Assembly: GCA_051294375.1 (NCBI GenBank)
Contig: CM119263.1
Span: 30,505,376 to 30,569,375, forward strand
From: Paraspadella gotoi
Taxonomy: Eukaryota; Animalia; Chaetognatha
Direction of reading: 5' to 3'
DNA length: 64,000 nucleotides
Shown here: in pieces, positions 11,963-58,100 of the stretch
Numbering within the stretch: position 1 is the stretch's first letter
Layout: every line of letters starts with the position of its first letter
The notes under the pieces: generated by a model
The model's input: only the letters and a program-made list of their open reading frames with translations
The model's database searches: none
What the model was told of the DNA's origin: nothing
Position numbers and translations under genes: made by a program

Positions 11963-11997
<35 letters not shown>

Positions 11998-17020: not shown

Positions 17021-17053
<33 letters not shown>

Positions 17054-17169: not shown

Positions 17170-17200
<31 letters not shown>

Positions 17201-18427: not shown

Positions 18428-18487
<60 letters not shown>

Positions 18488-27197: not shown

Positions 27198-27204
27198 ATT
27201 TGCT

Positions 27205-29916: not shown

Positions 29917-29923
29917 TATAAAA
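29917..29923 (+). promoter_or_regulatory. Candidate TATA box of the recombinase gene
   Basis: TATAAAA about 125 bp upstream of ATG 30043 in otherwise GC-richer sequence; AATAAA at 31802-31807 follows the ORF. Confidence 0.35.
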
Positions 29924-30042
29924 ATTCGTTTCTCTACCGTGACCTGAGAAGCGAATGAGCCAGGCAGTAAGTGACCATAGTTCACGGTAGGCTATGAGCG
30001 ATCTCGCAGCAAGGGATCGATCAGTTTGTGTTTTTGCTAACT

Positions 30043-31626
30043 ATGGATCATTTTACTTGCCTCGAATGTAAAAAAAATTACCCACGAGAAACCCGCGGGA
30101 AAGGAATAACTTGGGCAAAATCCACGAACAAAAAATGGGTAAAAAATTCGCTGTGGGAAAGAGACTGCTTACCCGTGTCCCGAAAATGAATGCAATGGTT
30201 GCAGCGCAACCTATGCACGACTTCGTGAACATTTTGGAACACGCACGGGTTCCGAATGACGACGCTTTCAGCTACGGAGGGAGAGGACTTCGCAGGCGCG
30301 CAAGACAAAAACTGTGCGCTATTCTAGATGGAAAAAACTGGCCTGATGCCCCTGCATCGCCCGCTAATGAGATTCCCACGAACCCGGAGAAAATAACGAC
30401 AACGGCCTCGGAGCAGATAGAGGGGACGGTAGTGGCGGAACCGGCTGTTGATACTTCTTATGATCTCTCTACCCCTTCCAACAGCCATCTTCTTCCACAA
30501 CTCGGTCCGGTCTCCTGTGGTTCGTACTCCTTCTCCTAAGGTAATTCGTAGGGAGGGGAGGGTACAGTAGGTACACGCGCTGGAAAATTTCGGAAGGGGC
30601 CTGTTCACGGGGTAATAACCTTTTTCCCTGCTTACAGATTCCCCAAGCTAAACTCCCGGATGATCTACGTAGTTGGATGGACGACCGCTACTCTCGCGCT
30701 ACCGGTGTCTGCGTATTCTGTTCACATTGGCCGGTTCATGGCTTTCTGCCATCCTTTCAGCGCGGAATACGCCTTTGAAGCAAAAAAGCTTGAAAAGTTT
30801 TGTCCCTATCGACGGTCCCTACTACGCGCAGTGTAGCGGTCTCCAGCCTCGGAAAGTCTACGTAGTGTACCTCGTCGCCGCCGCCGGAATATGAGCCGTC
30901 AGAGATGGATAGGCTGATCTGGGATGACATCCGGCGCGTGACACAAAGGCAAAAACGCGTCAGACAGACCAAGGTTACCCTGACCAAAAACCGGTAGGAC
31001 AGATTTAAAGTCACTACGTCCCCTCTTTCGGAACCCACGAGACGACTATCGCTTCTTGGACATCTCTCGGTCGGCAAAGAAGCGAGCTATAACACGGACT
31101 GAATACAATTTCGTCTCGGCATATGTAGCTTTGAAGGTGTTCTCCCAACAAAATGCAAAACGGCTGGGAAATCTTGCCCGCCTTACCCTCTCATCAATCT
31201 ACAAAGCGCGGGGGTGAGCGGAAAGTCCGGGCCTTGGGTAGTGCAGGTCCGAATGGCGACAAAGATTAAAGCTCCGGATGCATATGTGATAAATGATCCC
31301 TGTCGAAGGGGCTTCTGCTACGTTTTATTCGCACATACGTCCTTCTCTCAAACAGTCGCAGCCTCACGGTATCTATTTCCGCAGTATGATGGCCAGGCTC
31401 GGGGCACCTCGGCCTTTGCCGCTATCCTTCGGACCTTCGCTAGGTCCCGGGAATTGATGGTTTCAACATAACAACCTCTACGGCGTGCTGTGGCCTCGGC
31501 AGGCGCTGAGGACGCCGGAACGGACAGGCAGCGCTTGCCCAGGCGCTGGGTCACACGCAAGTGATTCAGCGTCAGTTTTACCTTCGCGGATCGGATGCAC
31601 AAAAAGTCCGAATCATCGGAAGTTGA
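30043..31626 (+). CDS. Tyrosine recombinase (Crypton-like) with N-terminal C2H2-like zinc fingers; frameshifted in this assembly; intron 30541-30637
   Basis: Manual translation gives NAKRLGNLARLTL (Arg 31161), WVVQV..K, RYLFP (31367), ITTLRRAVAS (about 31470-31498) and LAQALGHTQVIQRQFY (His 31552, Tyr 31579), in the correct order and spacing. Splice sites AG|GTAATT..TTACAG|. Confidence 0.75.
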
Positions 31627-32715
31627 CGACTAGTTACTCGCGAATTCGGCCAGGAGAAGTCATGGAAAAAACGTTTACGGCCGCGTAAACTTGATCCGTC
31701 AGACTCACCAACTGGGTCGGGGGGTCGGAAGAGGGTACGGGGATGTAGCTTTGACTGTTTCCTTTTGATGCCTAAAGATTCATGCCCAATTAATGCATAG
31801 TAATAAACATGTATTTTAATTTCCAATGTTGAGGACTCCATGGTGAAGTAACAAAAAGTAGGGTGAAGTCCCGTCCCCGTGTAGCTAGTTTTAAACACGC
31901 GGGACAGGCATGAAAAGCAAGACCGGCCGCGGGGTTGGTCTCGAATGAAAGATGGTATGGAAATAGCTGAGTGGTGTCCCGTGGTGGGACTAGCGGCTTC
32001 CGAGCATAGTTATAGCAAAAAACAAGTTTCACGCCTTGCAGGAAACAGGCGGACGGGTATATAAAAGCATGCCAGCCGTGGGATTGCTCTAGAATGAAAG
32101 ATATTGAGAAGACCGAGCGGTGTCCCACAGTGGACTGCGGCTTCCTAGGCATGGGTATTTGATCGAGAAAGCCGAGCGGTGCTCCCATGGCGGGACTGCG
32201 GCCTCCAATCGTCGGTAATACATGCCGTCGAACCATTGGGTAGTTCGGGTCCGAGAGTCGACTCGACTACTCCTCTACGGGCACGTCTGGGTAAGGGGAA
32301 GTTCTTTCTCTGAGCCTAAGTATTGCTCTTGGTTGTCCGCGTGTGATTCGAACCCGTGACTCGCTGTGACTCCGTCAGGGCGATCGCGGGGAAAAAATAT
32401 ATAAAATATTTGTAAAAAAGTCGTGCCTGCTCGGGATTGGAACCGTGACTCACCGTGACTCCGTCAGGGCGATCTCAGGAGAAAATTTCAGGCCGAGGGA
32501 GCACGGTCGCGAAAGGAATGAAAGATGGTATTGAGAAGACCTGAGCGGTGTCCCACAGTGGGACTGCGGCTTCCTAGGCATGGGTATTTGATTGAGAAGC
32601 CGGAGCGTGACGGCTNNNNNNNNNNNNNNNNNNNNNNNNNNNNNNNNNNNNNNNNNNNNNNNNNNNNNNNNNNNNNNNNNNNNNNNNNNNNNNNNNNNNN
32701 NNNNNNNNNNNNNNN

Positions 32716-34861
32716 GCCGGCGTTCACGCACGAGTTCAGGTGTGGTTCTAGTTGTTGGCGACTTCGCATGGCGATGTCGCCAGGGCTTTGGCGATGTCGC
32801 AGTCCCCCACTGGCGACTCGCCAGTGATAAAAGTAGGGAATATAATGAAAAGCCGCAGCTCACGGGATGAGCATCACCTTACAGGCTCCTCTCCCAAACC
32901 CTAACCTAAACCAAAGCCTCCCGTTCAACTCTGTGCCTCTCCCCTAACCCTAACCCGGGCCTGGGCCTGCCCGTACATCTCCATGCCTCAACCCTAACCC
33001 TAACTGCCTTTGATGCATCAACCACGGGCCCTCCCCAACCCTAACCCTAAACCAAGCCTTCCGTTAACTCTGGCTCTCCCCTAACCCTAACCCAGGCTCA
33101 GCCTCCGTACATCTCCGTGCCTCAACCCTAACCCTAACCGCCTTCGATGCATCAACCACGGGGCCCCCCCCCAACCCTAACCTAAACTAAGCTCCCCGTT
33201 CACTCCATGCTCTCCCCTAACCCTAACTCAGGCCCAGCCTCCTGTACATCTCCGTCCTCAACCCTAACCCTAACGCCTTCGATGCATCAACATGGTCCCT
33301 CCCCAACCACTAACCCTAAACCAAGCCTCCGTTCAACCCATGCCTCTCCCTAACCTAAACCAGGCCGGCCTCCCGTACATCTCCGTACCTCAACCCTAAC
33401 CCTAATTGCCTTCGATATATAACCCACGGCTCTCTCCCAACCCTAACCCTAACCGGGCCCAGGCTCCGTACATCTCCGCCCTCAACCCTAACTAGCCTCT
33501 AACCCAGTCTAACCTACACGCAGGCTGCCTCGTCTACAACCCTCGCCCTCATCAACAACACCCTCCTATCCCTATCCCTAAAATGACATTAATAATAAGC
33601 CTAAAATAAACTATACTTAACTCAACCCTACCTAACCCTAAACTACTCAACCCTACCCTAACTACTACCTATCAACCCTAAACCCTAAACCAACTCAACC
33701 CTAACCCTAACCCTAAACTGAGTTTATTTTAGGCAAAATCGCCATAACTAGAACCTAGATGTAGTCACAGCTAAATCGCCAAATGGCGGGGCGTCATGGC
33801 TAAGTCGCGATTTGGCGATTTCGCACTGAACTACATCTAGCGTTCTAGTTATGGCGATTTGAGCCTAAACTAAACTCAGATTAGGGTAGGGTTAGGGTTG
33901 AGTTGGTTAGGGTAGGGTTGAGTAGGTAGTGGTTAGGGTTGAGTAGTTTAGGGTTAGGGTTGATAGTTTAGGTTGGTTAGGGTTGAGTTAAGTTAAGTTT
34001 ATTTTAGGCTTATTATTAATGTCATTTAGGGATAGGGGTAGGGAGGGTGTTGTTGATGACCAGAGCCCGCGTTAGGTTAGGGTGAGGCACGGAGGATGTA
34101 CAGAGGCCTGGGCCGGTTTTAGGGTTAGGTTGGGAAGAAGGGCCCGTGGGTTATATATCGAAGGCAATTAGGGTTAGGGTTGAGGTACGGAGATGTACGG
34201 GAGGCCTGGGCCCGGTTTAGGGTTAGGGTTGGGAGAGAGGCCCGTGGTTATATATCGAAGGCAATTAGGGTTAGGTTGAGGTAACGGAGATGTACGGGAG
34301 GCCGGCCTGGTTAGGGTTAGGGGAGAGGCATGGAGTTGAACGGAGGCTTGGTTTAGAGGTTAGGGTTGCGGGAGGGACCCATGGTTGATGCATCGAAGGC
34401 GGTTAGGGTTAGGGTTGAGGCACGGAGATTGTACGGAGGCTGAGCCTGGTTAGGGTTAGGGGAGAGGCACAGAGTTGAACGGAAGGCTTGGTTAGGGTTA
34501 GCGGTTGGGGGAGGGGCCCGTGGTTGATGCATCAAAGGCGTTAGGGTTAGGGTTGAGGCATGGAGATGTACGGAGGCCCAGCCCGGGTTAGGGTTAGGGG
34601 AGAGGCACAGAGTTGAACGGGAGGTTTGTTTAGGGTTAGGGTTGGGAGAGGAGCTGAGGTGATGCTCATCCCCGTGTTAGCTGCGTTTTTCAATTATATT
34701 CGCTACTTTTATCACTGGCGAGGTCGCCAGTGGGGGGACTGGCGACATCGCCAAAGCTGGCGATATCGCCATGGCGAAGTCGCCAACCAACTAGAACCAC
34801 ACCTGCAACTCGTGCGTGAATCGCCGCGACATCGCTATTTGAATGAACTACAACTTAGGTT
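32716..34861. repeat. ~2.1-kb palindrome of two TTAGGG-laced arms around an asymmetric spacer at 33785-33809
   Basis: A CCCTAA-strand arm is followed by a TTAGGG-strand arm; spacer GGCGGGGCGTCATGGCTAAGTCGCG. Confidence 0.85.
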
Positions 34862-35009
34862 CTACGTGAGTTTCGTCAATGTCAAGCCTAACCTAGCCCT
34901 TGTTCAATCCCTCGGGAGCCACAGTCCGCCGTGGGACACCCCTTGCCCTTCAATGCCGCAGCCCGCATGGGACACCCGCTCGACTCTCAGTAGGTCGAGA
35001 GTCCCGCGA

Positions 35010-35930
35010 CCCCCATTGACAAATGTTTCACATGCGGACAACAAGAGCGGTACTTAGGCTCAGAGAAAGAACTTCCTTACCCAGACGTGCCCGTAGAGAG
35101 TAGTCGTCGACTCTCGGACCCGAACTACCCAATGGTTCGACGCTGCATTACCGGTGATTTGAAGCCGCAGTCCCGACCTGGGACACGCTGGCCCCTTCTT
35201 GCGTGATCGGACAAGCCCAGGTGGCCTGGCGATCACGAGGGTCCCGTGACCCCATGACAAATATTTTCACACGCGGACAACCAAGACGGTACTTAGGCTC
35301 GGAGAAAGAATTCCCTTTACCTAGACTGCCCGTAGAGAGTAGTCGAGTCGACTCCCCGGAACCCTAACTACCAATGGTTCGACGCGTGATACCGCGATTT
35401 GGAAGCCGCAGTCCCGCCTTGGGAACACCGCTCGCCCCTTGCGTAATTGGACCAGACCGTGGGCCTGGCGATCACGAGGGTCCGCGGACCCCCATTGAGA
35501 AATGTTTTCACACCGCGGACAACCAAGAGCGGATACTTAGGCTCAGAGAAAGAACTTCCCCTTACCCAGACGTGCCCGTAGAGAGTAGTCGAGTCGACTC
35601 TCGGGACCCGAACTACCAATGGTTCGACGCGTGTATTACCGGACGATTGGAAGCCGCAGCCCACCAGTGGGAACACCCGCTACGCCCTTGCGGAATTGAC
35701 CAGACCGTGGGCCTGGCGATCACGAGGGATCCCAGCGACCCCCATTGAGAAATGTTTTCACACGCGATAACAACAAGAGCATGACTTAGGCTCAGAGAAA
35801 GAACTTCCCCTTACCCAGGACCGTGCCCGTAGAGAAGTAGTCGATGTCGAACTCTGGACCCGAACTACCAATGGTCGACGCATTAATTACGAGATTTGAG
35901 CCTGCAGTCCCGCCTGCGGACAACGCTCGC
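35010..35930. repeat. ~240-bp GC-rich tandem array (about 4 units)
   Basis: CCCATTGAGAAATGTTTTCACAC anchor near 35010, 35250, 35490 and 35740; a partial unit lies inverted at about 32180-32345. Confidence 0.85.
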
Positions 35931-36184
35931 TTTCAGATAAACCTTCATTGCCTATGGAAAAGCCGGTGCCCACTGGGATCACCGCTCAGGACTTCTCACC
36001 ATTGAACCGAACAGAACAGAGTCTTTACCAGAAATTCCTTACCAAGTGCCAGTAACGGAGCACCGGACTACCAAGGACGATCAGTAAACCCTAACGAGGG
36101 CGCATGCCGTACACCCCTTTATCAACCCAGCCCAAAGTCCCTTGACAGCGTCGTCTACCATACTTCATCTCGCAAACGACTCTC

Positions 36185-38253
36185 GCCTGAAATTCTGGAT
36201 CGTGACAGTCCGGTGAGCTCACGGGTTCCCAATCCCGAGCGGGCACGACTTTTTTACAAACTAATTTATATATTTTTTTCCCCGGATCGCCTGACGGAGT
36301 CACGCGAGAGTCACGGGTTCGAATCACATCGTCGGACAACCAAAGGAGCAATAAACTTAGGCTCAGAGAAAGAACTTCCCCTTACCCAGACGTGCCGTAC
36401 GAGAGTATCGAGTCGACTACTCGGACCGAACTACCCAATGTTCGGCCCATGTATCTGACGGATTGGAGCCGCAGTCCCGCCATGGACACCGTCGGCTTTC
36501 TCGATCAAAATACCAGCTAGGAAGCCGCAGTCCCACTCGTCAGGGACACACCGACTCGGTCTCTCAATATCTTTCATCTAGAGCAATCCACGCTGGCCAT
36601 GCTTTTATATACCCGTCCCGCCTGTTCCTGCAAGGCGTGAGAATTGTTTTTTGCTATAACTATGCCCGGAAGCCGCAGTCCCACCACGGGACACACCTGA
36701 CAGCTATTCCATACCATCTTCATTCGAGACCAACCCGAGGCCGGTGTCTGCTTTTCATGCCTGTCCGGCGTGTTTTAAAACTAGCTACACGGGAGACGGG
36801 ACTTCACACGCATACTTTTGTTACTACCACACATGGAGTCACTCACATTGGAAATTAAAATACATGTATATTACTATGATTAATTGGCATGAATTTTAGG
36901 CAGTCCAAAAGGAAACAGTCAAAGCTACATCCACGTACCTCTTCCACCCCCCAGACCCAGTTGGTGAGTCCTGACGGATCAAGTTTACGCGGCAGCGTAA
37001 AACGTTTTTCCATGACTTCTCCTGGCCGAATTCGCGAGTAACTGAGTCGTGTCAACTTCCGAGATCGCGAGACTTTTTGTGCATCCGATCCGCGAAGAAA
37101 ACTGACGACTGAATCCTTGCGTGGACCCCAGCGCCTGGGACAAGCGCTGGCCCTTTCCGTTTCTGGCGTCCTCAGCGCTGCCGAAGGCCACAGCCACGCC
37201 CGTAGAGTTGTTATTTGAAACCATCAATTCCCCGCGGACCAAGCAAGGTCCGAAGGATAGCGGCAAAGGCCGAGTGCCCGACCTGCCATCATACTGAGCG
37301 GAAATAGATACCGTGAGGCTCGACTGTTTTAGAAGAATGACGATTATGCGAATAAAACGTTAGCAGAACACCCCTTTAGACAGGGGATCATATTATCACA
37401 TATCTCCGGAGCTAATCTTTTCGCCAATTCGGACCTGCACTACCCACAAGCCCGACTTCCGCTCACCCCCCGCGCTTTGTAGATTGATGAGAGAGGTAAG
37501 GGCCAAGATATTCCCAGCCGTTTTATGACATTTGTTGGGAGAACACTCCAAAGACTACATATCCGAGAGCGAAATTGTATTCAGTCCGTGTTATAGCTCG
37601 CTTCTTTGCAGACCGCAGAGATGTCCAAGAAGCGATAGTCGCTCGTGGGTCCGAAGAGGGGACGTAGTGACTTTAAATCTTGTCCTACCCGGTATTTGGT
37701 CAGGGTAACCTTTGGTCCTGTCTTGACGCGTTTTTTGCCTTGTGTCACGCGCCGGATGTTCATCCCAGAATCAGCCTATCCATCTCTGACGCTCATATTC
37801 CCGCGGGCGACGAGGTACATAGTAACTTCCGAGGCGGAGACGCTACACTCGCGTAGTAGGGACCGTCGATAGGGACAAAAAACTTTTCAAGTTTTTGCCT
37901 TCAAAGGCGTATTTCCGCGCGAAAGGATGGCAGAAAGCCATTGAACCGGCCCAATGTGAACAGAATATCGCAAGACCGTAGCGCGAGAGAGCGGTCGTCC
38001 ATCCAACTACGTAGATCAACCGGGAGTTAGCTTGGGGAATCTGTAAGCAGGGAAAAAAGTTATTACCCCGTGAACAGGCCCCTTCCAAATTTATCCAGCG
38101 CGTGTACTACTGTACCCCCCTCCCTACGATACCTTAGGAGTAAGGAGTACGAACCACAAGGAACGGGACAGTTGTGGAAAAGATGGGTGTTGGAAGGGGT
38201 AAGGAATCATAAAGAAGTATAACACCGTTCCGCACTACCGTCCCCTCTATCTG
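36185..38253 (-). repeat. Error-rich inverted duplicate of 30414-~32490 (second read-out of the recombinase gene)
   Basis: Reverse-complement similarity with many independent indels. Confidence 0.85.
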
Positions 38254-38508
38254 GCGACATCGCTATTTGAATGAACTACAACTTAGGTTTAAATCTAAAC
38301 TTTTGCGCAATTTTTGTGACACTAATATTTTGGAATATGTTAAAATTAATACGGATGGCTCATTACTGTGGGATTGAAAAACCTTACGCAAGCTTTCTAG
38401 GAAATGTGGTTTGTTCATCGTATGATCTTTATAAATTACAGAAAGCACTGTTTATAGTGTTTATAGTTTTGTGTTAGGTTTTCATTTTGGTTTCATATTA
38501 AAAATATA

Positions 38509-39016
38509 TTTTTATCGTCGCAATCGCTTTGCGTTTGCGACGTTATTGCAGTGATTTTGCTCATAAGTGGCGTCGTCGTTGTCGTCATTGGCGTTCCAAA
38601 TTATAGATCGCTTTTTTATGATTAAATTTGGGTGTATGAAGCTGAAAATTTATATACAGCTTCTCATCATCGATGTGCTTAAAATTGAGTCTGGACAGTT
38701 AATAAATATGTTTTGTTTACGTTTTATCTCTTAAAATTTTCTCTCTTTTATTTTCATATTTCTTTCTCTCTCTCTTTTCTCTTTTAATTACATGACTCTC
38801 TCCCTCTCTCTTTTCCCTAGTCACTGATTCATAATCATACTTAATCATAGGGAAAAAAAACGAGTCTGTAGCTGGCTCTGCAGGGGCTTATTCTTTTTCT
38901 CTCTTTTCTCTTGCTGCTTCTGCTGCTGCCTTTTGAGTCTGCAGCTGGCTCTGCAAGGGCTCTTTCTTTTTCTCTCTTTTCTCCTGCTGCTTCTGCTGCT
39001 GCCTTTTGATTTCTTT

Positions 39017-39051
<35 letters not shown>

Positions 39052-39429
39052 GTTTTTATTAAAAAAAAATTGAATTAGGATTGCTTTTAAGATTTTTTTT
39101 TCTCTTGTCAAATAACAGTTATTAAATATGTTTTGTTTAAGTTTTATCAAAAAAAACAAATTTTCTCTCTTTTATTTTCATATTTCTCTCTCTCTCTTTT
39201 TTCTTTTAATTACATGTCTCTCTCACTCTCTCTTTTCCCTATTTACTGATTCATAATCATAGGGAAAAAAAACCGAGTCTGCAGCTGGCTCTGCAGAGGC
39301 TCATTCTTTTTCTCTATTTTTCCCTACTGCTTTTGCTGCTGCCTTTTGAGTCTGCAACTGGCTCTGCAGGGGCTCTCTCTTTTTCTCTCTTTTCTCCTGC
39401 TGCTTCTGCTGCTGCCATTTGATTTCTTT

Positions 39430-39470
<41 letters not shown>

Positions 39471-40193
39471 TTTTATTAAAAAAAAATTTGAATTGGGATT
39501 GAACTCGTAAAATTAGGCATGGCATTCTTGCATGTTATCATTTTGCTATAGTAATATCGGGTTTTTATTTCACTTTAGTCTTTACTTCACTTCGTCAGTC
39601 TGATTCAAGTTTCACTTTGTCTTTTGTCTGGGAATGCTGACAGTGTTTAGAGAGGTCGCATTCGATCAAACTGCTCGCTTATGCGTGCTTAAAGTAAAAC
39701 AAAAGTACCTTCAATAATGTTACTCCAGTCTTAGCACTTGCTAAAAATTAACCTTGAAAATAAGTTATTTTACTGTTTTATATTTATTCTTTTGACAATG
39801 AAAAAGTTTTTTTTTCTCTCTTTTTTTTTTCTCTTTTTTTTTTCTGAAACTGTAACTGTAACTTGACAATCGCAAAATAGAATTTTTTTTTCTGTTTATA
39901 AATTAATTTTCTTTTTTTCCCCTTTCTATTCTTTCTTTCCTTTCTATTCTTTCTTTCCTTTCTATTCTTTCTTTCCTTTCTTTTCTTTCTATTCTTTATT
40001 TCCTTTCTATTCTTTCTTTCCTTTCTATTCTTTCTTTCCTTTCTATTCTTTATTTATTCTTTTCTTCTTTTTCTTTCCGTTTATAAATTAATGGTTTTTT
40101 TTCAAATTTGATTTTTTTTATTATCAAAATTTGCCGTCAATCCAGATTTTTCTTATGCAATTGCGACGATCCTTATGCTTTTAAGATTTTTTT
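38509..40193 (+). mobile_element. HINE-like element, family B
   Basis: SubTIR ATCGTCGCAAT/ATTGCGACGAT, 5' palindrome TCGTCGCAATCGCTTTGCGTTTGCGACG, (CGT)n, 3' CTTA..TAAG hairpin and T-rich flanks. Partial copies at 44572, 59012 and 62650. Confidence 0.7.
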
Positions 40194-41404: not shown

Positions 41405-42015
41405 CAGTATTGCACCCATGTAGTATTGGGCCTTTAAAATTGCACCCCAAGGAGTGCACCCACGTAGCATTGAGTCCACGTACAATTGTACCCATAGTAT
41501 TCCGCCCACTTTAGATTGCGCCTACATGGGATTCCGCCCATGTAGAATTGCGCCTGTGGATAAGGCACTAAGTGGGCTGAAGATGACTATCCGTAACTTC
41601 TTTAACCCCCTCTAGCAGCTATGGAACGGGTCCTGGGCTTGGAACCAGGCTTGAGGGTTTTCCACGCCCCCAAGGCGGCTTACGGCCGTCCTCACACTTC
41701 CCGCAGAGTAGGTACCGGGTTAGGATTGAACCCGGTACCTAGTGGTCATGAGCTGATGGCTTTATTCAATGAGCCACCGGGTCACAACTGAAGGATTCAT
41801 GCTTAGAGGCGGGGTGAACTTTGCTATGCCCGACTACACGCCTACCCCAGACTGCCCATAGAATTGAGCCCATAGTAATGCGCCCAAAGGATTGTGCCAT
41901 TGTAGGATTCCGCTCACTTAGCGTTGGGCCCAAAGGATTTGAATTATCAGTGGGCGCAATACTGTGGGCGCAATTTTCTGGGGGAAATCCTACGTGGGTA
42001 CAATCCTAATGGAAC
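41405..42015. mobile_element. MITE with short subterminal tandem repeats, interrupted by a SINE
   Basis: ATTGCACCCATGTAG-type units on the left and the inverted CTACGTGGGTACAAT on the right. Confidence 0.5.
41558..41792 (-). mobile_element. tRNA-derived SINE (second copy 43977-44210)
   Basis: Minus-strand GGTGGCTCATTG A box and GGGTTCAATCC B box; two similar dispersed copies. Confidence 0.7.
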
Positions 42016-43480: not shown

Positions 43481-44950
43481 AGCTTATATGAATCACAAAA
43501 GGTTAAAGTTTTTTATATTTAAATTTTATTTTTCAATTTTTACATTAAAATGCCGAAAAATAACTGGAAAGTAACCGCAACACTTTTTTTTTCCATCATG
43601 GTAGTATGTTTCATAATATAAACTAATTAATTTATTTAAGGAGTAAACTTTAAAGAATAAGAAGCGGGTATTGTACTGATTCAATCCCAACCCAGTGCTT
43701 GCCATAAGGGAAGCTTAGGGACGGCGCTAAACCGCCTAGAGATTTTTAACCACTAGCTTAAGCCCAGTTCCAAGATCAAAGGTGTAAAAAATTTATGGAT
43801 ATTCAGCTGACTCGTGGCCACTTCGCGCGTTATGAATACTAGTGTGCCCGGATCCTATTGAAGATTGCTTCACTCCCTTAACTAAATAAAATATTTTGAA
43901 TGGGCATAGCAATCCCTAAGCCCGGTTCAAAGCCTCACTAGTCTATCGTAGCAATCGGAGATAACAGCATTTTTGAGGATAAGGCGCTAAGTGGGCTGAA
44001 GATGACTATCCGCAACTTGCTTAACCCCTCTTGCAGCCATGGAACAGGTCCTGGGCTTAGAAACAGGCTTGGGGGTTTTCCAGGCCCCCAAGGCGGTTTT
44101 TAGCCATCCTTATGCTTCCTGCAGGGTAGGTACCAGGTTGGGATTGAACCCGGTACCTAGTGGTCATGAGCTGATGGCTTTACTCAATGAGCCACCTGGT
44201 CATGACTGAAACTGTCTTATAGTTATTCTCAAAAATTCTAACTACACATCTGGTCAAAAAAAAGTTTAAAAGTTATGATAAAAGCATTTTATTTAGTTAT
44301 TTAAAAGAAAATAATATTTAAGATTCAATTAATATATTGTTAGATTACCATTGGTTTTTAGTACTACTTTTATGCAACAAGGGAGAGATTCGCAGAGGCT
44401 GCGCAAATATGAAGGGTTCAGCTCTTCCTAAATATATTTTATAATTTTTTTGATTTTGTCAATTGTTGTGGCATTGTACTGCAAAATATCTTATTTTATC
44501 CTTAACCAGATTTTTTTAATGATTTTGCAGTCAGGTAAGTTTCCGGGTAAACCTTTGAGCATCTTAATCCTATTTTTATCGTCGCAAACGCAAAGCGGTG
44601 GTTTTGTACATAAATGGCGTTAGCGTCGGAATTTTATAATAAAATAATTATATTAATAATAATTATTCATTGCTGAATGACTAGCGATAATTCTTTTTTT
44701 TTTAACTATAATAATAATAATAACTAAAATATTTAGCTTAAAAACTTTGTTATAAGCTCGAATGAAAAATATTTGTTTTAGCTTTTAAATTAATAAGCTT
44801 TTTAATTAATAGGATGACAGACAAATGAGATAGTAGGGGGTTAAAAGTTTAAATTTTTTTTGACCACATCTGTAGTTCTTACTTTCCCAGTATAATTTTT
44901 GAAATATGTTGACAAATTGGTTTCATTACAAATTTTTCTCGTGAATTATA

Positions 44951-47883
44951 CCCAAGTTGTGGTTCATTCAAATAGCGATATCACCGGCGATTCATGCATG
45001 AGTCACAGGTGTTTCAAGTTGGCGACTTCGCCATGGCGATATCACCAGGGGCAAAGTTGTAGTTCATTCAAATAGCAACGTCGCCGGCGATTCACGCATG
45101 AGTCGCAGGTGTGGTTCTAGTTGGTGACTTTGCCATGGCGTTATCGCCAGGGCCCTGGCGATGTCGCCAGAACCCCCACTGGTGACCTTGCCAGTGATAA
45201 AAGTAGCAAATATAATGAAAAGCGCGATTTAGAGGAGAGGCTCGCGGCTGATGTTGAGACACGGACCTCCCGTTCAACCCTAAACCTAACTGCCTTTGAC
45301 ACGTTAACCATGGGCCCCTCCCAAAACCATAACCCTAAACCAGGCCTCCCGTTTAACTCCGTGCCTCTCCCCCAACCCTAAATCAGGCTTCCCGTTCAAC
45401 TCTGTGCCTCTCCCCCAACCCTAAACCAGGCCTCCCGTTCAACTCCGTGCCTCTCCCTCAACCCTAAATCAACTCAACCCTAACCTTAAACCACCTCAAC
45501 CCTAACCCTAATCTGAGTTTAGTTTAGGCGAAAACGCTATAACTAGAACGCTAGATGTAGTTCAGTGCCAAATCACCAAATCGCGACTTAGCCATGACGC
45601 CCTCGCCAATTGATTTAAATGTGAACTACATCTAGCGTTCTAGTTATGGCGATTTTGCCTAAACTAAACTCAGATTAGGGTTAGGGTTGAGGTGGCTTAG
45701 GGTTAGGGTTGAGTTGTTTTAGGGTTAAAGTTGAGTTGGTAGTAGTCTAGGGTTAGGGTTGAGTAGTCTAGGGTTAGGGTTGAGTAGTCTAGGGTTAGGG
45801 TTGAGTTAAGTTCATTTTAGGGTTAATGTTAATGTCAATTTTAGGGTTAGAGGTAGGGAGGGTATTGTTAATGAACAGAAGGCCCGCGTTAGGGTTAGGG
45901 AAGGTACTGGCGAGGGACATTAGGATTTGGGTTGAGGCACAGAGATATACGGAGGCCTGCGGCCTGGTTTAGGGTTAGGGTTGGGAGAGAGGCCCGTGGG
46001 TGATGTGTTGAAGGCGGTTAGGGTTGAGGCATGGAGATGTACAGGAGGCCCGGGCCTGGGTTAGGGTTAGGGGAGAGGTACGGATTTGAATGGGAGGCCC
46101 GGTTTAGGGTTGGAGGAGGGGCCTGTGATTGACACATCAATGGCGGTTAGGGTTGAGGCACAGAGATGTACGGTAGAGCGTTGAAAAATAACAAAATATA
46201 ACAAATCAAGTGAGGTACATAGATATTTTAGTGTAATGTAGTCTGTAGAATTCGATGGTTATGACCATTTTTTTGTATAATTTTATCTTTCTTGTCGGAA
46301 ATGACGGTTTTTAATGTATATAAAATTGTTACAAAATAGCAAAACCATTATAAGTTATGATAAATCAAATTATTAAAATTTTATAAAAATTTATATGAGC
46401 TTTTGAAATATAAAAATAAAGACTTATAAAAATATTTTGGTAAGTTTATTTCTAAATTTTATGTTTTATAAAAAGTTAGTTAACTATATTTATTAATAAT
46501 TATGAGTAAAAATTAGGTTAAAGTTAAAAAATAATAATTTCAAAATTTTTTTTATGGATTTGCATTCTTTGCAAAAAGTTGATATAAGAAAATATAATTT
46601 TTATATCAAAATTATGTCATTAAGTTGGTCAAAATTCAGAAAAACTATAATTTTAAGCCAAAAATTGATAGAAAGCGTTTTTAGATTGATTGGATTGATT
46701 GATTGGATTGGGGGAGGAGCCCATGGGTGATGCATTCATGTCCGTCTCATACTAATAAAATCGTTGTCTGATCAATCTAAAAACGCTTTCTATCATCGAT
46801 TTTATTAATATGAGACGGACATGTCCGTCTCATACTAATAAAATCGTTGTTTGATCAATCTAAAAACGCGTTCTATCATCCAAACACAACGAAACGAAAG
46901 GAAATAACGAAGCCAAAAATTGAAAAATTAAACAAAAATAATAGTTTTTAATATTTTTAACCTACTTAATGAAAGAATTTTTTAAAATGGATTATACTTT
47001 CTTATATCAACTTTTTGTAAGGAATTCAAATCCGGTTTTAAAATTTAAAATTTAAAATTTTTTCACTTTAGCTTATTTTTTATTATTATTTATTAATAAA
47101 TATAGCTATAAAATATAATATATATAAAATATATAATAAATATATAATATATAATAAATATATAATAATATATATAATAAATATATAATATATAATAATA
47201 TATAATAAAATAAAATATAAAATTTGTAAATAAACTTACATAATATGAAAATAAAAACCCATATAAATATTTTGGTAAGTTAAATATGGCTTTTATAAAA
47301 TCTTAATAATTTGAGTTTCTTATACTCTCCAATGTTTGCTCCATTTTAATAGCACCTTATATGCTACAAAAATCGCCATTTCCGACAAAGAAGATGAGAC
47401 TATACAAAAAAATGGTTATCATCATCGAATTCTACAGACTTTATTACACTAAAAGAGCTGTGTACCTCGCCTGGGTTAGGGATAGGGGAGAGGCACGGAG
47501 ATGAAAGGGAGGCCCGGTTTAGGGTTAGTGTTGGAGGAGGTGCCCGTGGTTAACATGTCGAAGGCGGTTAGGGTTAGGGTTTATTGGGAGTTAAACGGGA
47601 GGCCTGGGTTAGGGTTGGGGGAGAGGCACGGAGTTGAACGAGAGGCCTGGTTTAGGGTTGTGGGAGGGGCCCGTAGTTGACGTGTTGAAGGCAGTTAAGG
47701 TTAGGGTTGAACGGGAGGTGCGGGTTAGGGTTAGGATTAGGGGAGGAGCCCATGGGTGATGCATTCATCCCCGTGTCTCAAAATCAGCCGCAAGCCTCTC
47801 CTCTAACTTGCGTTTTTTATTATATTTGCTACTTTTATCACTGGCGAGGTCGCCATGGCAAAATCTCCAACCAACTAGAACCA
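44951..47883. mobile_element. Diverged non-coding palindromic copy of the TTAGGG-arm element
   Basis: Starts CCCAAGTTGTGGTTCATTCAAATAGCGA, has the same central spacer CGCGACTTAGCCATGACGCCC at 45582, and ends CAACCAACTAGAACCA. The right arm is interrupted at about 46175-47470. Confidence 0.8.
46207..47474. mobile_element. AT-rich long-TIR MITE nested in the arm element
   Basis: GAGGTACATAG..GTCTGTAGAATTCGATG on the left and CATCGAATTCTACAGAC..GTGTACCTC on the right. Confidence 0.6.
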
Positions 47884-49095: not shown

Positions 49096-49647
49096 CACAA
49101 TTAAAAAACTTTGTTTTTTCTCTAAATCAGTTTTTGTTATAATTTTTTCACTTAGAAAACGTAAGAATTTTTAAAAGCTGTAATTATATTTCTTATTTAA
49201 CTTTTTATGCTATATCAGAATCTATCAAAAAATTTTAAGATTTAAAAAAATTATTTTTTGCTCTATATAGTAATATAATATTTTTAATTAGGTTAGTACC
49301 CTCAGAAGAAAGCATTTTAGACAAAAAATATTTTAATACCATAATCTATGGTCATGATAGATTATTTTAACGCTGTATACATTAGCATTTAAATTTAGTT
49401 ATTAAGAGTTATGGTTAAGGGTGGTTTAGGGATGGTTTAAGATTAGGGGTGGTTAGGGTTAAAAGCGTTTAGGGTTATGGTAATTAAATAATAATTTTTA
49501 TAAATTTAAAAAAAAAATAATTCTAAATGTTTTTTTAAAAGACGCCAAAACCCCGGTTGGCGAAAGTAAAATTTAGCCAATACCTTATGAGAACACAATT
49601 TTTCATTAAACCCATCCACGAAGTTGTCAGGCCAAAAAACTTCTAAC

Positions 49648-52600
49648 CATGTATTCGAGTATAGCTCTGTAAATATAGCAAACCAAAAAAATAGGCTTAA
49701 AGTGGCTATTATCCATGACCATACGATAAAATATTTTGATGTATTAGTCCAAACATGTTTTTCTGATTATGTTTGTAAATTAACAGGTGAAATAAATAAA
49801 ATAATTTTAGGTAAATACGAAAAATGAAAAACCATTTTGCAATTTTTAGTCGGATCTGCTTATCAGCAGATCCCGACTCTATAATTCACTTTGTCGGTCC
49901 GTCGGTCCGCCCCCTCAATATTGTCGGGCACTAACTTATATCATGTCAGAACATCGAATTATGATAAATTATGCAAAAAAAATGATGTCCGTCCATCCCA
50001 CCTTAGCAAAAAACACCAGTTACTCGTGATTGGATGGATGGATTTGAATAAAATTTTGTGTGTGATTGAGCTGGATATGAAGTTTTGATGGAATCGAATA
50101 TATCATCACTAAATATATTCACTATTTGAACACCAATTGCTCATGAGTGGATGGGCTGATTGACCTGGAATTTTGTATGTGGGTAGGAAAGTGTGTGATT
50201 GAACAGGAAATCAAGTTTTGATGGAATAGTTTGAGTGGAAAAGAGTTTAAATGGAAAAAAACAAAAAACCTGTTTCACTAATTGATTATGCATCTTTTTC
50301 CTTTTATATTAAATGTATATGCAGGATGTATTAATAAATCATATAATGAATCAGTTAATTAATCAATTAGTAAATAAATTAATCAATAATTAATTAATTA
50401 GTCAATCAATCCGTCCATCCGTTCCACCTTAGCAAAAAGCTCCAATAACTCGTGATTGGCTGGTTAGATTGGAATTAAATTTTGTGTGTGGGTAGGAAAG
50501 TGTGTGATAAAGCTGGATATAAAGTTTCGATGGAATCGTGTTAGTGGAAATTAGTTTAAATGGAAAAAACATAAGTCGCATTTACTAAAATCTTTTTACT
50601 TATTTTAACCAATAAATACTCTAATTAATCATAATTGGATGGATAGATTGAGTTGAAATTTTGTGTGTGGGTAGGAAAATATGTGACGAAGCTTGATATA
50701 AAGTTTTGGTGGAAACGTACCAGTGGAAATGAGTTTAAATGAAAAAAATATGAGTCACATTTACTTGAATCTTTTTATTTATTTTAACCCATGATAGATT
50801 GAGATGAAATTTTGTGAGCCGGTAGAAAAGTTTGTGAAGAAGCTAGATAAAAAATTTTGACGGAATGCAAGTTGAAAAAATTATGCAAGTTGAAAAAATG
50901 ACGCAATTGCATAAAAAGAGAGAGAGAGAGTGAGAGTGAGAGAGAGAGAGAGAGAGAGAGACATAAAATAAAATAGAGGATATTTGTTTGTTTTGATAAA
51001 ATGTAAACAAAACTGTAAACTGTCCTGACTCAATTTTAAGGACATCGATGATGACAAGCTGAATATAAATTATAATTAATTATTAAAATTAATTAATTAA
51101 TTAATCGATTAATTAATTATCGTAGGCAGATCCGACATTGTTTGCTCAAACTTGTTTTTATAATGAGGCTTTAAGGGGAACTAGTGAACAGGGGGGGTAA
51201 AAAGCTGAAAACATAACGTTTGACCCTTTAACTTAATCTTAAGATTTATCGTAAGAAAACCTTTATCTCAAAGATATATACAGTGAAAAATACTGTTCTT
51301 CAGAAAATTGTTCCGTTTTTTACAACATAAGAACAATTTTTAATTGTTTAAATTTTAATTAATTAATTTTACTTAATTAACTGTTTTTTTCTCTCTATTT
51401 TATAATGTTTTTTTTTTTTGCTTAGACTTAGTCTATCTTTCTTTGTTTGTTTGTTTGTTGATGATGATTGTACTGAATCAACCTCGTTGTATTCGAATAA
51501 AATCGCATATATAAAGTGGATTCTCACTCATTGCTCGGTTTTGTGAAAATAACTGAATGATGATGATAAAATAACTAAATAATTTACAAACATAACCCTC
51601 AATTTGGTTGATTATACAATACTCTTTGGGAAATCGCATTTGGTTAGCTTTATAATAAACTCGAATAGCTTCAATCAAACCATCAGGCTTATTCGGTTTC
51701 AAGTCTTTTTGAAATTTGCAGCGGGAAGTCTCCAAGATAGCATTGTGATTTGACGTAATCGTTCTCTTCAAAGTTTTCGGCGCTATATCCAAGATCCTAA
51801 AATAACTTGCTCTTTGGAGGAGCAAAATGTGACAATCGGATTTGGCGAGAAACAAAAGGGGCGTGGTCATCTTTCTACAGAGATTGATCTCTCCAAAACA
51901 TTCGCCCTTCTTTAATAAAGCCACGGCCTCCTCGCCTTTGGGCCAGAGAGCGACGACCATGACAGTTCCCTTTCTAATGATCATTAGTCCCGGGGCGACG
52001 GTTCCCGGTTGGACGATGGTCTCCCCCTCCAGATAAAATCGGTTCTCGAGAAAATGAGCCAGACCGTGGAGGATGTCTTCGTCTACGTTGTCGAAGATTC
52101 GCGTGGATTGAAGCAAAGAGACGCAGGAATAGTAACGCATGGTATCTTGATGGCGAAACGGCATTTGCGAAAATAACTCGTTGTTTAGTACCGAATTATT
52201 ATTTTGATACTGATAATAGATAAAAATCTTGAGAGAGTGAGTTCTAGGACAAAATAGTTCGAAAATGTCTCAGGTATTTACGAAATAATATGTTCATTTA
52301 ACTCGTTTTAAGAAATAAATTGCATCGCAGGATAATCAACCTCACCCAAAACAGAAACGGATCGGAGGATCGGAAAATCCCCGCCGATATGGAATCGCCG
52401 TATCATTATTGGTCAAGACGGAATCGACCTTGACCAATCAGCATGCAGAACCAATGGAACTGTCAAAATAACTCTTGCCTTTTTTCATTTTTAACACTGA
52501 AGACATTTAAATTTTTAATAATATATTTTATATTTTTGATCTAACTTTTTATGAAGAATCAGAATTTTTAATAAAAATTAAAAAAATATATTTTAAAAAT

Positions 52601-55085
52601 TTATGATTTTATAAGGATATTACTATAAATATATTTTAATTAATGATACTGTTCCCCAAATAATATAAGCAAAATATTTTTTGTACTCCTTAATCATATT
52701 ATCTCACATCTAAATATCTTTGTTTGTTCATTCAAATACAATTTATGTTCCCCGGTGCTCCACTCTATTGATTAGTATGAATCTTTTTTCATTTAAAACA
52801 AGTTTGAGCAAACAATGTCGGATCTGCCCACGATCATTATCGGTAATTAATTAATTAATAATTAAGTAATTCAAATTAATTAATTAGGCAATTAATTTGA
52901 TCCGAAATGTTTGTTTGACTGATTGATTAATTAATTGATTAATTAACTGATTAATTATTTGATTAATTAATACATCTTGCATTTACATTTAATATAAAAA
53001 GAAAAAAAAGCATAATCAATTAGTGAAAAAGGTTTTTTGTTTTTTTCCATTTAAACTGAATTCTACTCAAATGATTCCATCGAAACTTGATTTCCCGCTT
53101 AATCACACACTTTCCTACCCACACACAAAATTTCAGGTTAATCGGCTCATCCACTTATGAATAATTGGTGTTCAAATAGTAAAATATATTTTTTGTTTTT
53201 TTTTCATTTAAACTCATTTTCACTCGGACGATTCCATCAAAACTCAATCACACACTTCCCTACCCACACACAAAATTTTATTCCAATACATCCATCCAAT
53301 CACGAGTAATTGGTGTTTTTTGTTAAGGTGGGACAGACGGACAGACAGATGGAAATAATTTTTTTTGCATATTTTATCATAATTCGATGTTTTGACATGA
53401 TATAAGTGAATGCCCGACAAGATTGAGGGGGCAGACCGACGGACTGACAAAGTGAATTATCGAGTCGGGATCTGCTGATAAGCAGATCCGACTAAAAATG
53501 GTAGGCTGCAGTTATCTTTCTCTTATGACATAGTATTTTCCAGGTAAAATTCTATGAGTTAAAAATACGGTAAGAAGTGATTTCTTCGATGCTTATCAAT
53601 CTAATCTCATTAACTGCCTTAGTTTTAAAAAAAAGTAAGTATGAATTTTCACGGTACAGAAAACTTTTAAGGCCTGGTATCAGTGGCCAAAAGTTATAAT
53701 TAGGATGAAATAAAGCTTATATTCGGAAAGTAGAGGTCCAGTTGATTCTGAAAATGTATTCACTTTATCTTCTCTTCGAATCCATTGCTGTTTTTTCAGA
53801 TTTGAAAATACTATATAAAATAAAAGAATCCTTTCGGAAGAGTTGCGGCCCAAACGGCTAAGCGGATTTTCATGAACTTTTACATAAATTTACTCGAGGA
53901 CAAGGGTTCCAATTCTTTGAGAGGGATTTTTCAAATTCACTTATCTTCATAAGAAAAAAAAGAATAATACAATTTTGGCATTAAATTCTAAATATCTTGA
54001 AAACGGTGGCTGTGGTATTCCTCCCAGACAGGATTCCTCCCAACTGGATTCCTCCCACACGGGATTCCTCCCACGCGGGATTCCTCCCCATGGGATTCCT
54101 CCCCATGGGATTCCTCACACACGGGATTCCTCCCACACGGGATTCCTCCCCAAAGAATTCCTCCCACACCGGATTCCTCCCCATGGAGGACCCTAACTTA
54201 CCCTTTACTTATTTTTAACCTCAATTTATTTTTCTATTTAACTTACACTTATTCTTAATTTATTCTTAACCATAATTTATTGTAACCTTAATTTTTACCA
54301 AATATATATTGGTTGTACCAATTTCAAATAACAAAAATAAAAAAATATTTAAAAAAATTATGATATCTGAATTTCTTTATTTTTTTTCCCCTAAACATTA
54401 TCCTCTTTCGTTCCATTTCGTTTCTCTTCTTTTTTCCGTTAATTCTTTAAGAAAAACCTTGCTCTTCGTTTTCCCATAGGCCTCCAGAGGGCATTGATCT
54501 CCAGGAATGCCGATTTTTTCCCCTAAATGTTGCAAAAATTGTACTTTTTTATTATTAGAAATAGGTCGAGATGATTTTAACCAATCCCGAGTTGGGCCCA
54601 ATTTGTAGTGTGGTACAAATTAAATAAATATTGTAAGTAATAACTGAACAATGCTGGAAAAGGTAGTTTTTTTTCTGAATGCGAGGATTGTAAGTAGAGG
54701 CTCTGATCCTCTTCTTCAGATATAAATAGACCTAGCTTTCCTTAGTTTGAGTAGAATTGATCTGGACTCTTGCGCGTGTCTCACCATCATTATTAGAATA
54801 AATCTCGTGTTGATTTCATCCAGAAATGCTTGAGTTTTTCCTTCAATGTGGTGGCAGTGGTGGGATTCAAACCTTCGCCTCCGAAGAGATAACGTAACCA
54901 TAATATAATATAATAATATAATATAACCGTCAAACTTACATAGTTAAAAATTTGAGCAAAGTGACATGTTGAAAATATCTTTCTTAAGTTAGGATTATAA
55001 TATTTTAATTATTTTATAATTAAAAACATTTGAATAAGTAATACAATTAATATTTAAGTCGTCGAATTATATTAATTAAAGGCTT

Positions 55086-55119
<34 letters not shown>

Positions 55120-58100
55120 AGATTCTTGCATATTCGCCCAACTTTAGTTAACGCACCCTTAACGCCACAAACTCTCGCAAATATTTTCGTTTTTTTTCGC
55201 CGAAACTAAAAACTTTGCAATAAGAGTCGATGACGTTTAATTTGTCCTTGTATTCCACTTCCATCCAATCCCTCTCGTAGAAAAAGGTGCTGATCACCGC
55301 CGTCAAGTACCAGTTGAGGGCGAAGTAGCCGTAGAATATGTAGAACATGAAGACGACCTCTTCAGGAATGCTGATCGGATTCGCCTCCCTCGCCCCGATC
55401 CGATGTATCGTACTCCACACGAAAAAGTGTCCCAAATCGTAGAGCGTGTTCGGGAAGCTGGGCGAGTGGACGGTCAACTCGATCATCTTCTTCGGCGACT
55501 GATCCACGGCGAGGAAAGGGAACTGTGCCATTTTGTTCGTAACCTCGGAGAACCAAGTGTCCTTCAAACATCCGCTCACGTTCAACTGAATAAAGTTACA
55601 AAGGCTGTCGTAGCAACGGACGATGTTTAACTTGCGCCGGGGAAAACGTTCGGGACACTGGACGTAAGGCATAAGCATCCAAATCATGGTCAGGTAAGTT
55701 TCCGAGAAGAAAATACAAAAGGCGTAGCGACTGAGTCGCACCGAAATCCTAGAGTTCCCCATTCCGTAGTCGTGCTTGAGCAAAAACGAAAGGCGTTTGA
55801 CGGAAACTACAAGGATGTAGATCGTGCAGAGGATGCCGAGCACCGGATTCTCCGACGCGTTCATCCAAATTTCTAGGAGGTAAATTGGTAAGACCGTGAG
55901 AAGGTCCGGCAGCAATCTTCGACGCGTCACATCGCGGAGCACGAAGCTTGGGTCCAACACGTTGCGCCCGTAACGGTTCACGCCAACAAAACACATCGCC
56001 GCGAGGCGAAGAAGGACGAAGCACTGTATTTTTTTTCGAGGGGGGGGGCACAATCATCAAATGATTTTTTTTCTCAGAAAAATTAAACTGATAGTGCAAT
56101 TAGTTGGCTTTTAGCTGGATATTATATTAAGTATTAATTACCTTCGAATCGATCAACTTTCGCTTAAAATCGAACTCGTTTGATCCAATAAGGATTTGAA
56201 CTACGCGTAATATCAAGCTTAAATCGGTAATCGAGATTAGGCGCAATCCGGCCTGTAAGAAGTAATGAAGAAGCGAAACAGGAAAAAGAGGTAATCATTA
56301 GAAAGGTAAATGATAAAAATAATAAAATTATAACAGAATATGTAAGATAATCTATGAAGAGAAAACAAGTTATAAACGAATAGTCATAGTGCAGATATAT
56401 AGGAGTAATATCGCCAGCAAAATTACTATTAACATAGTCGTCAAATTATATATTTAAATTCTGTTAATTCAAGATCAGTATATATAGAGAGTATAGAATG
56501 TATCTCATGATAGAATGCTGATTGCGATGAGTTTTATATTTTCTATCAACGTTTGATGAGGTAATGATCTGAAAGAGATAGTCATAACTCTATGATAGGA
56601 TTCCATTTGACTAAGATGCAATGAATAAATAATAAATGACAGATTCGTTAGAGATGAATGTTGAGTTTCGAATCTTTTTATTATAATAATTTGGAGCAAA
56701 CAATATCGGATTTGCCTACAATAATTTAGTGCCAATCAGCTAAAAAGTATGCAAGTTGAAAAAAGTATGCAATTGAAAAAAAGTATGCAAGTTAAAAAAA
56801 GTATGCATAGTTAAAAAAAAGTATGGCAAGTTGAAAAAAGTATGCAAGTTGAAAAAGTATGCAAGTTGAAAAAAAGTATGCAGTAGAAAAAGTAGCATTG
56901 AAAAAAAGTATGCAAGAGTATGCAATTTAAAAAAGTATGCAATTTGAAGAAAGTATGCAAAAGTATGCTATTTGAAAAATGTATGCAAAAGTATGCAATT
57001 GAAAAAAATGTATGAAAAGATGCAATTGAAAAAAATGTTGCAAAGTATCAATTTAAAAAAGTATGCAAAAGTATGCATAATTGGAAGTAAAGTATGCATA
57101 CTTTGAAAAAAGTATGCATACTTTAAAAAAGTATGCATACTTTGAAAAAAGTATGCATACTTTGAAAAAAGTAGTGATACTTTGAAAAAGTATGCATACT
57201 TAGAAAAAGTATGCATTTTTAAAAAGTATGCATACTTCAAAAAAGTAGCATATTTTAAAAAAAGTATGCATACTTGAAAAAAGTATGCATACTTTGAAAA
57301 AGTATGCCTTTTTTGAAAGTATGCCTACTTTTTTGAAGTATGCATTATTTTTTCAAAGTATGCATACTTTTTTAAATATGCATACTTTTTTCAAAGCACG
57401 TCACGTCAATGAAGAACTAGCCATCGCATCAATGAATGACAATTAATTCGCCATCAATGAAACATACGCACAATGAATGATTATCATCGATCATGAAGGA
57501 CTATCATCCATCAATGAATGATTATCATCGCATCAATGAATGACTATCATCTAGCATCCTCATCATTTGGTTATCATCGCATCAATCCTTCGGTTATCGA
57601 TCGATCATATTGGTTCATCCACAATTGGTTATCATCAAAGTAGGCCTCGATCCCTATTGCTTTAAGATTTTATTGAACGTTTGTCACTATCAATAACAAT
57701 AATTAATGTCTCTTCAAGAGATAAGATAAAAGACTAACAAGGGACAAAGGACGACTAGAGCCCAATATCACGGCGTGAAAATTCAAAACATTATCTAAAG
57801 CGTAAAAAAACGGTAAAGCCATGTTGAAATATGGTATTTATCTGGCCCGGATCGCGCATGATCAAGCTTATTTTTAATTGATTTCTCATTGGATACACTA
57901 CGTCAACCATTTTCAATACAGACCGGAACGCGCTTAAAAAAGCTTTTAGCGTGCAAAAACTTGATATCCTTTCTATTTGCTCTAATTTAATATAAACTCT
58001 CTAAATATTACCCCGCGCTCTACCTGAAACAGATAGTAAAAACAATACAGTTTTTTCGATGGTCTTAGAACAAAAAAAATTGAAGGCTTGACTATGCAGT

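Follow-up and report, generated by a model that had tools for sequence, protein, structure and literature searches.

A non-coding foldback element in Paraspadella gotoi, probably Crypton-like, with predicted tyrosine-recombinase sites at its ends and in its arms

The interval 44949-47882 of a 64,000-nucleotide stretch of the Paraspadella gotoi genome (the window) forms a non-coding foldback that carries a nested insert of 1.3 kb, and is referred to here as copy B; related sequences in the window were designated copy A (the foldback 32716-34861), C (the arm 26086-27197) and D (the terminal piece 38254-38289). Copy B is probably a non-autonomous Crypton-like foldback, moved in trans as a circle by the tyrosine recombinase (YR) of a larger relative and carrying junction-like sites in its arms; it is called Crypton-like and not a canonical Crypton because long inverted arms are present.

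Architecture of the element

The left, or 'long', end of copy B (44949-44966, plus strand) consists of TACC (3/4 equal to AACC), an 8-bp spacer ACCCAAGT at 44950-44957, and a right-type arm TGTGGTT at 44958-44964, and is a predicted half-site. Two tandem copies of a terminal unit of ~100 bp occupy 44951-45152 (plus strand), with 86/100 aligned positions alike, and this duplication is spanned by an X6 contig (44820-45189) with 0 differences. At the outer edge of the left arm, the right-end half-site AACTAGAACC recurs in inverted form (45113-45122, minus strand), and this is the point where 'short' ends stop. The left arm itself (45123-45540, plus strand) carries GGCGA/TCGCC subterminal motifs, followed by AACCCT-containing repeats of 43-47 bp, and leads into inner site 1 (45541-45564, plus strand; arm AACTAGA, spacer ACGCTAGA, arm TGTAGTT), which is predicted to be a YR site and shares the register of the joined ends. 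The centre of 57 bp (45565-45621, plus strand) contains an asymmetric loop at 45582-45607, the start of which matches the subterminal motif GGCGACTTCGCCATGGCG at 15/18 positions. Inner site 2 (45622-45645, minus strand) is site 1 inverted, at a centre-to-centre distance of 81 bp, and is followed by the inner part of the right arm (45646-46173, minus strand), with repeats containing GGGTTA. The right arm continues beyond the nested insert as an outer part of the same element (47469-47872, minus strand), and closes with the right, or 'short', end AACTAGAACC (47873-47882, plus strand), a predicted half-site made of a left-type arm and the first 3 spacer bases, with the AACC direct repeat at 47879-47882.

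Inverted arms in this family measure 0.4-1.1 kb; at one terminus they reach the end, and at the other they lie ~60 bp (plus a duplication) inside. The original prediction described them as TTAGGG arms; TTAGGG runs are indeed present, but they comprise at most 3 units and belong to repeats of 43-136 bp; they are therefore no telomeric arrays, and a telomere origin of the arms was rejected.

The nested insert (46174-47468, no strand assigned) is an AT-rich inverted repeat of another, very abundant family, with arms from 46213 and to 47468, and lies outside the element proper. It has the highest contig depth of the compared stretch, bar the last bin of that stretch. A 29-bp piece in its middle matches a copy B arm (46720-46748 with 47749-47777), the middle also has a small palindrome (46794-46849), and 39 unexplained bases precede the left arm of the insert.

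Support for the foldback and related copies

The 24-mer AACTAGAACGCTAGATGTAGTTCA was found exactly at 27162 (plus), 33827 (minus), 45541 (plus) and 45622 (minus), and the spacer CGCGACTTAGCCATGACGCCC exactly at 45582 (plus) and 33789 (minus), each with 0 occurrences in 100 shuffles; on folding, 45500-45690 gave a single hairpin (-72 kcal/mol, z -18.9). The exact 24-mer (n=4) and spacer (n=2) matches, together with the hairpin fold, confirm the earlier claim that copy B has inverted arms around the same spacer as 32716-34861. The spacer had also been said to be flanked by the inverted 24-mers; the inverted pair exists, but is not adjacent to the spacer, an imperfect inverted repeat of ~14-17 bp lying between. 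That copy B is independent and diverged was likewise borne out, both of its arms having a shorter AACCCT run and a TAGAGGAGAGG block absent from the 26-35 kb copies, and the differences from those copies being substitutions (~9% outside repeats). The bases that follow an inner site depend on the side, GTGC for one and CA for the other, and both subfamilies retain them; the left 24-mer of copy A has two 1-bp deletions.

Comparison with short-read contigs from other samples covered only the left part of copy B. On the left side, the flank or the terminal duplication was crossed by contigs of 3/4 short-read runs from 2 studies, with 0 differences, and both joints of the centre were covered by contigs reaching 33-53 letters beyond 45534 and 45609, a cover that is family-wide and not copy-specific. 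Since these contigs span the left flank and both centre joints, the arm-centre-arm structure is genomic. Summed contig depth at 45609, relative to single-copy flank contigs, was ~90x for X1, ~110x for X2, ~6x for X6 and 0 for X5, values that do not amount to a copy number; they hint at abundance, perhaps with hairpin dropout, and holes in the contig cover prove nothing.

Related copies lie at 26-38 kb. Arm C (26086-27197, plus strand) has a short end with host flank, an arm and one inner site (27162-27185), and then a different interior. Foldback A (32716-34861, no strand assigned) lies beside a 100-N gap and bears the long-type extension at each of its two sides. It occupies the axis of a larger foldback (30414-38253), in which the YR gene is present twice. 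An indel-rich inverted copy of 30414-32493 (36185-38289, minus strand) ends in the truncated long end D (38254-38289) with host flank. The YR gene has arm C on one side and foldback A on the other, and the inverted copy of the gene adjoins D. Copy B and this 12-kb YR-bearing unit (26086-38289) have the same arms, the same 24-mer and both end types, without terminal inverted repeats (TIRs) or target-site duplications (TSDs) at the termini, which supports copy B as a non-autonomous partner of the YR element.

Copies at 26-38 kb differ mostly by indels: the two YR copies show 41 mismatches as against 177 gap openings, and the arms are 96-98% alike without gaps. Inverted duplicates are described as degrading nanopore base calls (PMC7229812, in the portion of that source available), and therefore a real palindrome and a foldback chimera at 30414-38253 are not told apart by the noise. 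The original prediction of a real foldback and not a chimera thus holds for the arm-centre-arm structure, where independent contigs cover the joints, and does not extend to the larger foldback around copy A. The YR-bearing neighbour is in a noisy part of the assembly that may be chimeric, and the putative link from YR to arms runs through an indel-rich region beside a gap.

A second large inverted duplication, of 11 kb (8930-20083, arms 98.5% alike), has a 25-N gap and a small hairpin repeat at its centre, duplicates part of a cNMP-binding gene, and is probably an assembly foldback.

Inner sites and centre

When the right and left ends were overlapped on their common AACC, the joined sequence agreed with the inner 24-mer at 20/24 positions, against 10-14 in eight shifted registers. 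Both the inner 24-mer and the joined ends consist of arm AACTAGA, 8 bp and arm TGTAGTT, with 7-bp arms that are 6/7 symmetric, and their spacers differ (ACCTAAGT at the long end versus ACGCTAGA in the inner sites, 3/8 equal in register). The arm-N6-arm pattern matched five times in the window, all within the family, versus 0.11 expected; the fifth match is a junction-like site (ACGTAGA, ACCTAAGT, TGTAGTT; 34844-34867, minus strand) at which the long end of copy A meets DNA downstream of the YR gene. The exact 24-mer was absent from viral and metagenome contigs, and the pattern gave 0 viral matches; its 4 matches in metagenomes lacked both arms and similarity to the window, and were attributed to chance.

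YR sites are described as arms of 11-13 bp around a spacer of 6-8 bp (PMC3212892, available in part). The core-site layout of two inverted arms and a 6-8 bp spacer fits each 24-mer, with arms of 7 bp that fall below the usual 11-13 bp, and fits neither the 25-bp loop nor the 57-bp centre. The original prediction had placed a candidate recombination or resolution site at the centre. Neither a single YR site nor a telomere-resolvase site is supported there: the 25-bp spacer, with 57 bp between the 24-mers, exceeds the 6-8 bp YR spacers given in that source, and lacks the symmetry of a telomere-resolvase site, the central 56 bp being self-complementary at 26/56 positions in copy B and 18/56 in copy A, versus 52/56 in phage N15 telRL. 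The site-like units are instead, by prediction, the two 24-mers and the element ends.

The centre, earlier described as conserved, was somewhat better preserved than the sequence around it. Between copies A and B the loop is identical at 25/25 positions plus one gap and the 24-mer at 24/24, compared with 225/248 (90.7%) for the background, giving p values of 0.088 and 0.097 singly and 0.0085 together, for two copies and for regions chosen after looking.

In a strong form of the earlier claim, a protelomerase-like YR would cut the centre as a hairpin-telomere or resolution site, and the element would be a replicated hairpin end. This reading would accommodate the position of copy A at the axis of a larger foldback with the YR gene twice, as well as the asymmetry of the centre, kept across two subfamilies. 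It is the least probable of the readings considered, given the low axis symmetry just described, 8-bp spacers that are non-palindromic, and the second giant foldback at 8930-20083, which, centred on its 25-N gap, cuts a host gene and suggests that the assembly makes such structures.

The inner 24-mer marks the border between the arm and a variable interior (57 bp in copy B, repeats and the YR in copy C), and an inner site adjoins three interiors in all: the 57 bp, the repeats plus YR, and that of an X5 contig in which 248 unmatched letters precede site 2. The GTGC interior side goes with the long end in copy B and with the short end in copy C, which is not proof of flipping, as an end placed at the outer half-site of the long arm gives the same picture.

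A non-autonomous DIRS-like YR retroelement, with inverted terminal repeats, a one-sided extension, and the 24-mers as its internal complementary region (ICR), would follow the same logic, since the DIRS ICR is described as complementary to the start of the left repeat and the end of the right repeat (PMC6681497, in part). This reading is highly improbable: the end-to-24-mer match is 20/24 and fades beyond, the 24-mer is present in two inverted copies, and no reverse transcriptase (RT) or RNase H was found in the interior by a search of low sensitivity.

Termini

Copy B starts with TACCCAAGTTGTGGTTCA and stops with AACTAGAACC. The long end type recurs as AACCTAAGTTGTAGTTCA at 34861 (minus) and 38289 (minus), and the short end type at 26086 (minus). 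Among loose contig ends, short ends (X1, X5, X6) stop at GGTTCTAGTTG with differing flanks, and long ends (X6) stop at AACCT with mixed flanks; since loose ends stop at the same letters while their flanks differ, both end types are recurring termini. The two ends of copy B differ from each other, the left being an 8-bp spacer followed by the arm TGTAGTT and the right the arm AACTAGA followed by the first three spacer bases, and have (A)ACC in common.

In each host-flanked pair (B; D with C), a long end is combined with a short end in direct orientation; the D-C pair is joined across a gap and may not be one insertion. Fixed-length TSDs and TIRs were looked for at the termini of these two pairs, and neither was found: the outer 20 bp showed an inverted identity of only 10-11/20, and scanning of end positions within 6 bp, with the best 8 repeats per pair retained, gave no TSD register common to the two pairs. 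Among those best 8 per pair, ACC was the sole repeat register common to both (2/2); AACC occurs in one host-flanked pair, the left repeat of copy B being TACC and not AACC. Flanks are plain AT-rich DNA, non-repetitive in all of the 3 host flanks in the window and the 4 loose-end consensuses.

Foldback elements and MITEs of DDE type include FB, Galileo and MULE-like elements. Copy B would be such an element, with long TIRs of tandem repeats and the YR gene as a passenger or chance neighbour, on a reading that accounts for the long inverted arms of tandem repeats and the high abundance, and that can draw one 3-bp ATA repeat around copy B. We regard it as very unlikely, given that the outer 20 bp of the ends are inverted repeats at only 10-11/20 positions, that the ATA register of copy B reads AAA versus AAT in D/C, that one arm has a 60-bp extension, and that no DDE domain was detected in 49 further open reading frame (ORF) pieces of the GC-rich interior, in which frameshifts lower sensitivity.

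A foldback may also arise from two non-autonomous Helentron/Helitron2-derived units, each with subterminal inverted repeats and central tandem repeats, placed head to head as in Drosophila Tetris. Each arm of copy B does have its own short inverted motifs at both edges with tandem repeats between, and GGAC/GTCC-bearing repeats of Helentron look are common in the window; in addition, a 9-bp motif lies at unequal distance from the two ends, comparable with the asymmetric TIRs described in the accessible part of PMC8969392. The long end is, however, without a terminal hairpin outside the 9-bp motif, the base beside the short end is T in 3/5 flanks, and the agreement of joined ends and inner sites in their 8-bp register, like the YR gene, is left unexplained, so that this origin has the same low probability as a DDE-type one.

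Recombinase gene

The candidate transposase of the family is a frameshifted, tyrosine-recombinase-like gene at 30072-31623 (plus strand; 5' limit guessed), in which the series R, K, H, R, H, Y reads R, K, T, R, H, Y, a T standing where the first H is expected. Frameshifted pieces at 30984-31623 (plus strand) contain NAKRLGNL, ATKIK, YLF, LRR, LGH and Y. Frame breaks, positioned manually, were treated as X; the X-joined read-through scored 16.4 bits on a 130-sequence profile (126 XerD-like domains and four reference YRs), a score reached by 0/3000 shuffles, and the C-terminal motifs LF, LR, LGH and Y were in register in the alignment to this profile. When the window was scanned in six frames without joining, two of the YR pieces came out as the top two segments (E 2.4 and 2.7, neither significant alone). 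A profile of the four reference YRs was weak, with 91/2000 shuffles reaching the score. Catalytic spacings (R-R 106, R-H 23-24, H-Y 9) were within or one residue outside those of the four reference YRs (76-119, 22-23 and 9).

Homologues of the YR pieces were not found in Pfam, PHROGs, PDB, protein collections, 50% representatives, viral contigs, phages (tblastn) or a first Atlas query; Atlas leads include DUF3435 and DUF3504 clusters (0.84, below the 0.9 line and thus leads only). The lone phmmer match to a YR piece, P0002, was rejected as a repeat artefact, and a single-sequence fold (pLDDT 35) was set aside. Across the further ORF pieces of the GC-rich interior, 0/49 had any Pfam match, RT, RNase H and DDE domains included, a search in which frameshifts lower sensitivity and the YR pieces score nothing either.

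Proposed mechanism and relation to known systems

In the favoured Crypton-like reading, the YR would join the long end with the short end to form a circle, with a junction of arm, 8 bp and arm. The circle would reinsert at AT-rich targets with only ACC-level homology needed, leaving a constant short direct repeat and no TSD, and copy B would be an interior-reduced derivative. Inner sites would be recombinase-binding and junction-derived; they could pair mutually, having the same spacer in inverted orientation, and because inner and end spacers differ they should not recombine with the ends. As they face each other at a distance of 81 bp, inversion of the interior by them is conceivable, and the asymmetric loop may be a diverged subterminal motif from the family founder and no cut site. 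No empty site, circle or flip was observed in the material compared, which comprised two centres.

Yeast 2-micron Flp/FRT and P1 Cre/loxP use arm/8 bp/arm sites, and two same-spacer sites can lie inside long inverted repeats. Copy B resembles these systems in both respects, and differs in its arms of ~7 bp (the lox arm is annotated as 13 bp), in its sites only 81 bp apart, and in being an integrated chromosomal element for which inversion is a prediction. That the family is a 2-micron-like animal YR family, in which the end half-sites excise and insert and the spacer-incompatible inner pair flips or swaps the interior to yield foldbacks and variable cargo, is an extension that we consider unlikely; the three interiors next to an inner site and the differing GTGC pairing in copies B and C are hints of it.

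Crypton ends are described with direct repeats of 4-6 bp, and non-autonomous derivatives are known, such as CryptonI-1N1_RPro and CryptonA-1N1/2_OL (Kojima & Jurka 2011, PMC3212892, in part). Like Cryptons as presented there, the copy B family has a YR as the sole enzyme found, a short constant direct repeat, no TSD, abundant non-autonomous derivatives and a proposed circle. In the same available text, Cryptons are described without TIRs or long repeats, and animal CryptonA/I without any terminal repeats; the copy B family, unlike Cryptons, has inverted arms of 0.4-1.1 kb, unequal half-site ends and two internal junction-like sites, and the first H of R-H-R-Y in its YR is T. CryptonV (PMC8869645, in part) is likewise an animal YR-encoding DNA transposon; some CryptonV families target microsatellites, whereas the flanks of the copy B family are plain AT-rich DNA. 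CryptonV ends may already include the copy B layout. Crypton transposition is without experimental demonstration according to the consulted portion of a 2026 review (PMC13565253).

Fungal Starships, as far as described in the available parts of PMC10104507 and 10.64898/2026.09.21.753150, are similarly YR-driven, with a short microhomology direct repeat (TTAC) and ends joined as a circle junction; they differ in being giant, cargo-carrying and fungal, and those parts describe no foldback derivative with internal junction copies. DIRS elements with inverted terminal repeats and an ICR (PMC6681497, in part) also use a YR and have an internal sequence that mirrors the joined ends; in copy B, unlike DIRS, no RT was found, and the match is imperfect, only 24 bp long and present twice. 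A Crypton with the copy B layout was absent from the published descriptions compared, each available in part (PMC8869645, PMC5753468, PMC3212892, PMC13565253, PMC8969392, PMC12130899, PMC6681497, PMC10104507), and Repbase/Dfam or supplements may hold one.

The copy B family yields a base-level prediction of a recombination site, its crossover bases and a circle junction in an animal, with the inner site and its different spacer as a natural internal control, and so opens the circle model to direct tests. Were the inner sites active, palindromes and rearrangements would have a new source in an integrated element that inverts its interior, and developers of tools might take an interest in a low-homology animal YR; were they fossils, the family would be a structurally unusual non-autonomous Crypton-like one.

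Genomic setting

The window has a eukaryotic, AT-rich composition (~30% GC) with two N gaps, and contains cNMP-binding and ion-channel genes. Divergent, long-exon CNG/HCN-like genes (ion-channel or cNMP-binding) are arrayed at 7300-8559, 19155-21278, 51478-52269 and 55148-56053, all on the minus strand, the first three with Pfam matches. A dispersed repeat of 0.5-0.7 kb, with a GGAC/GTCC microsatellite and 155-bp subrepeats, occurs at 939-1611, 3296-3755, 5335-6012, 12264-12870, 16148-16771, 49843-50401 and 52848-53499, and is one that we take to be Helentron-associated from its look. Other small repeat families or local duplications are found at 41555-41792 with 43974-44210, at 24732-25457, and at 38509-39571 with 62650-63295. 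A short degenerate TTAGGG-like patch at 49400-49480 has no match to the ends or centre of the foldback element. Between the inner site of copy C and the YR region, 27200-28170 is occupied by a tandem array that also contains AACCCT but is of another type (periods 83-195), unlike the arm repeats. GC-rich short repeated motifs, with a 239-bp tandem repeat, lie up- and downstream of the YR gene (28850-29450, 32340-32490, 34996-35930), and in these regions CpG is undepleted, with an observed/expected ratio of 1.1-1.5 versus 0.6 in the arms of copy B.
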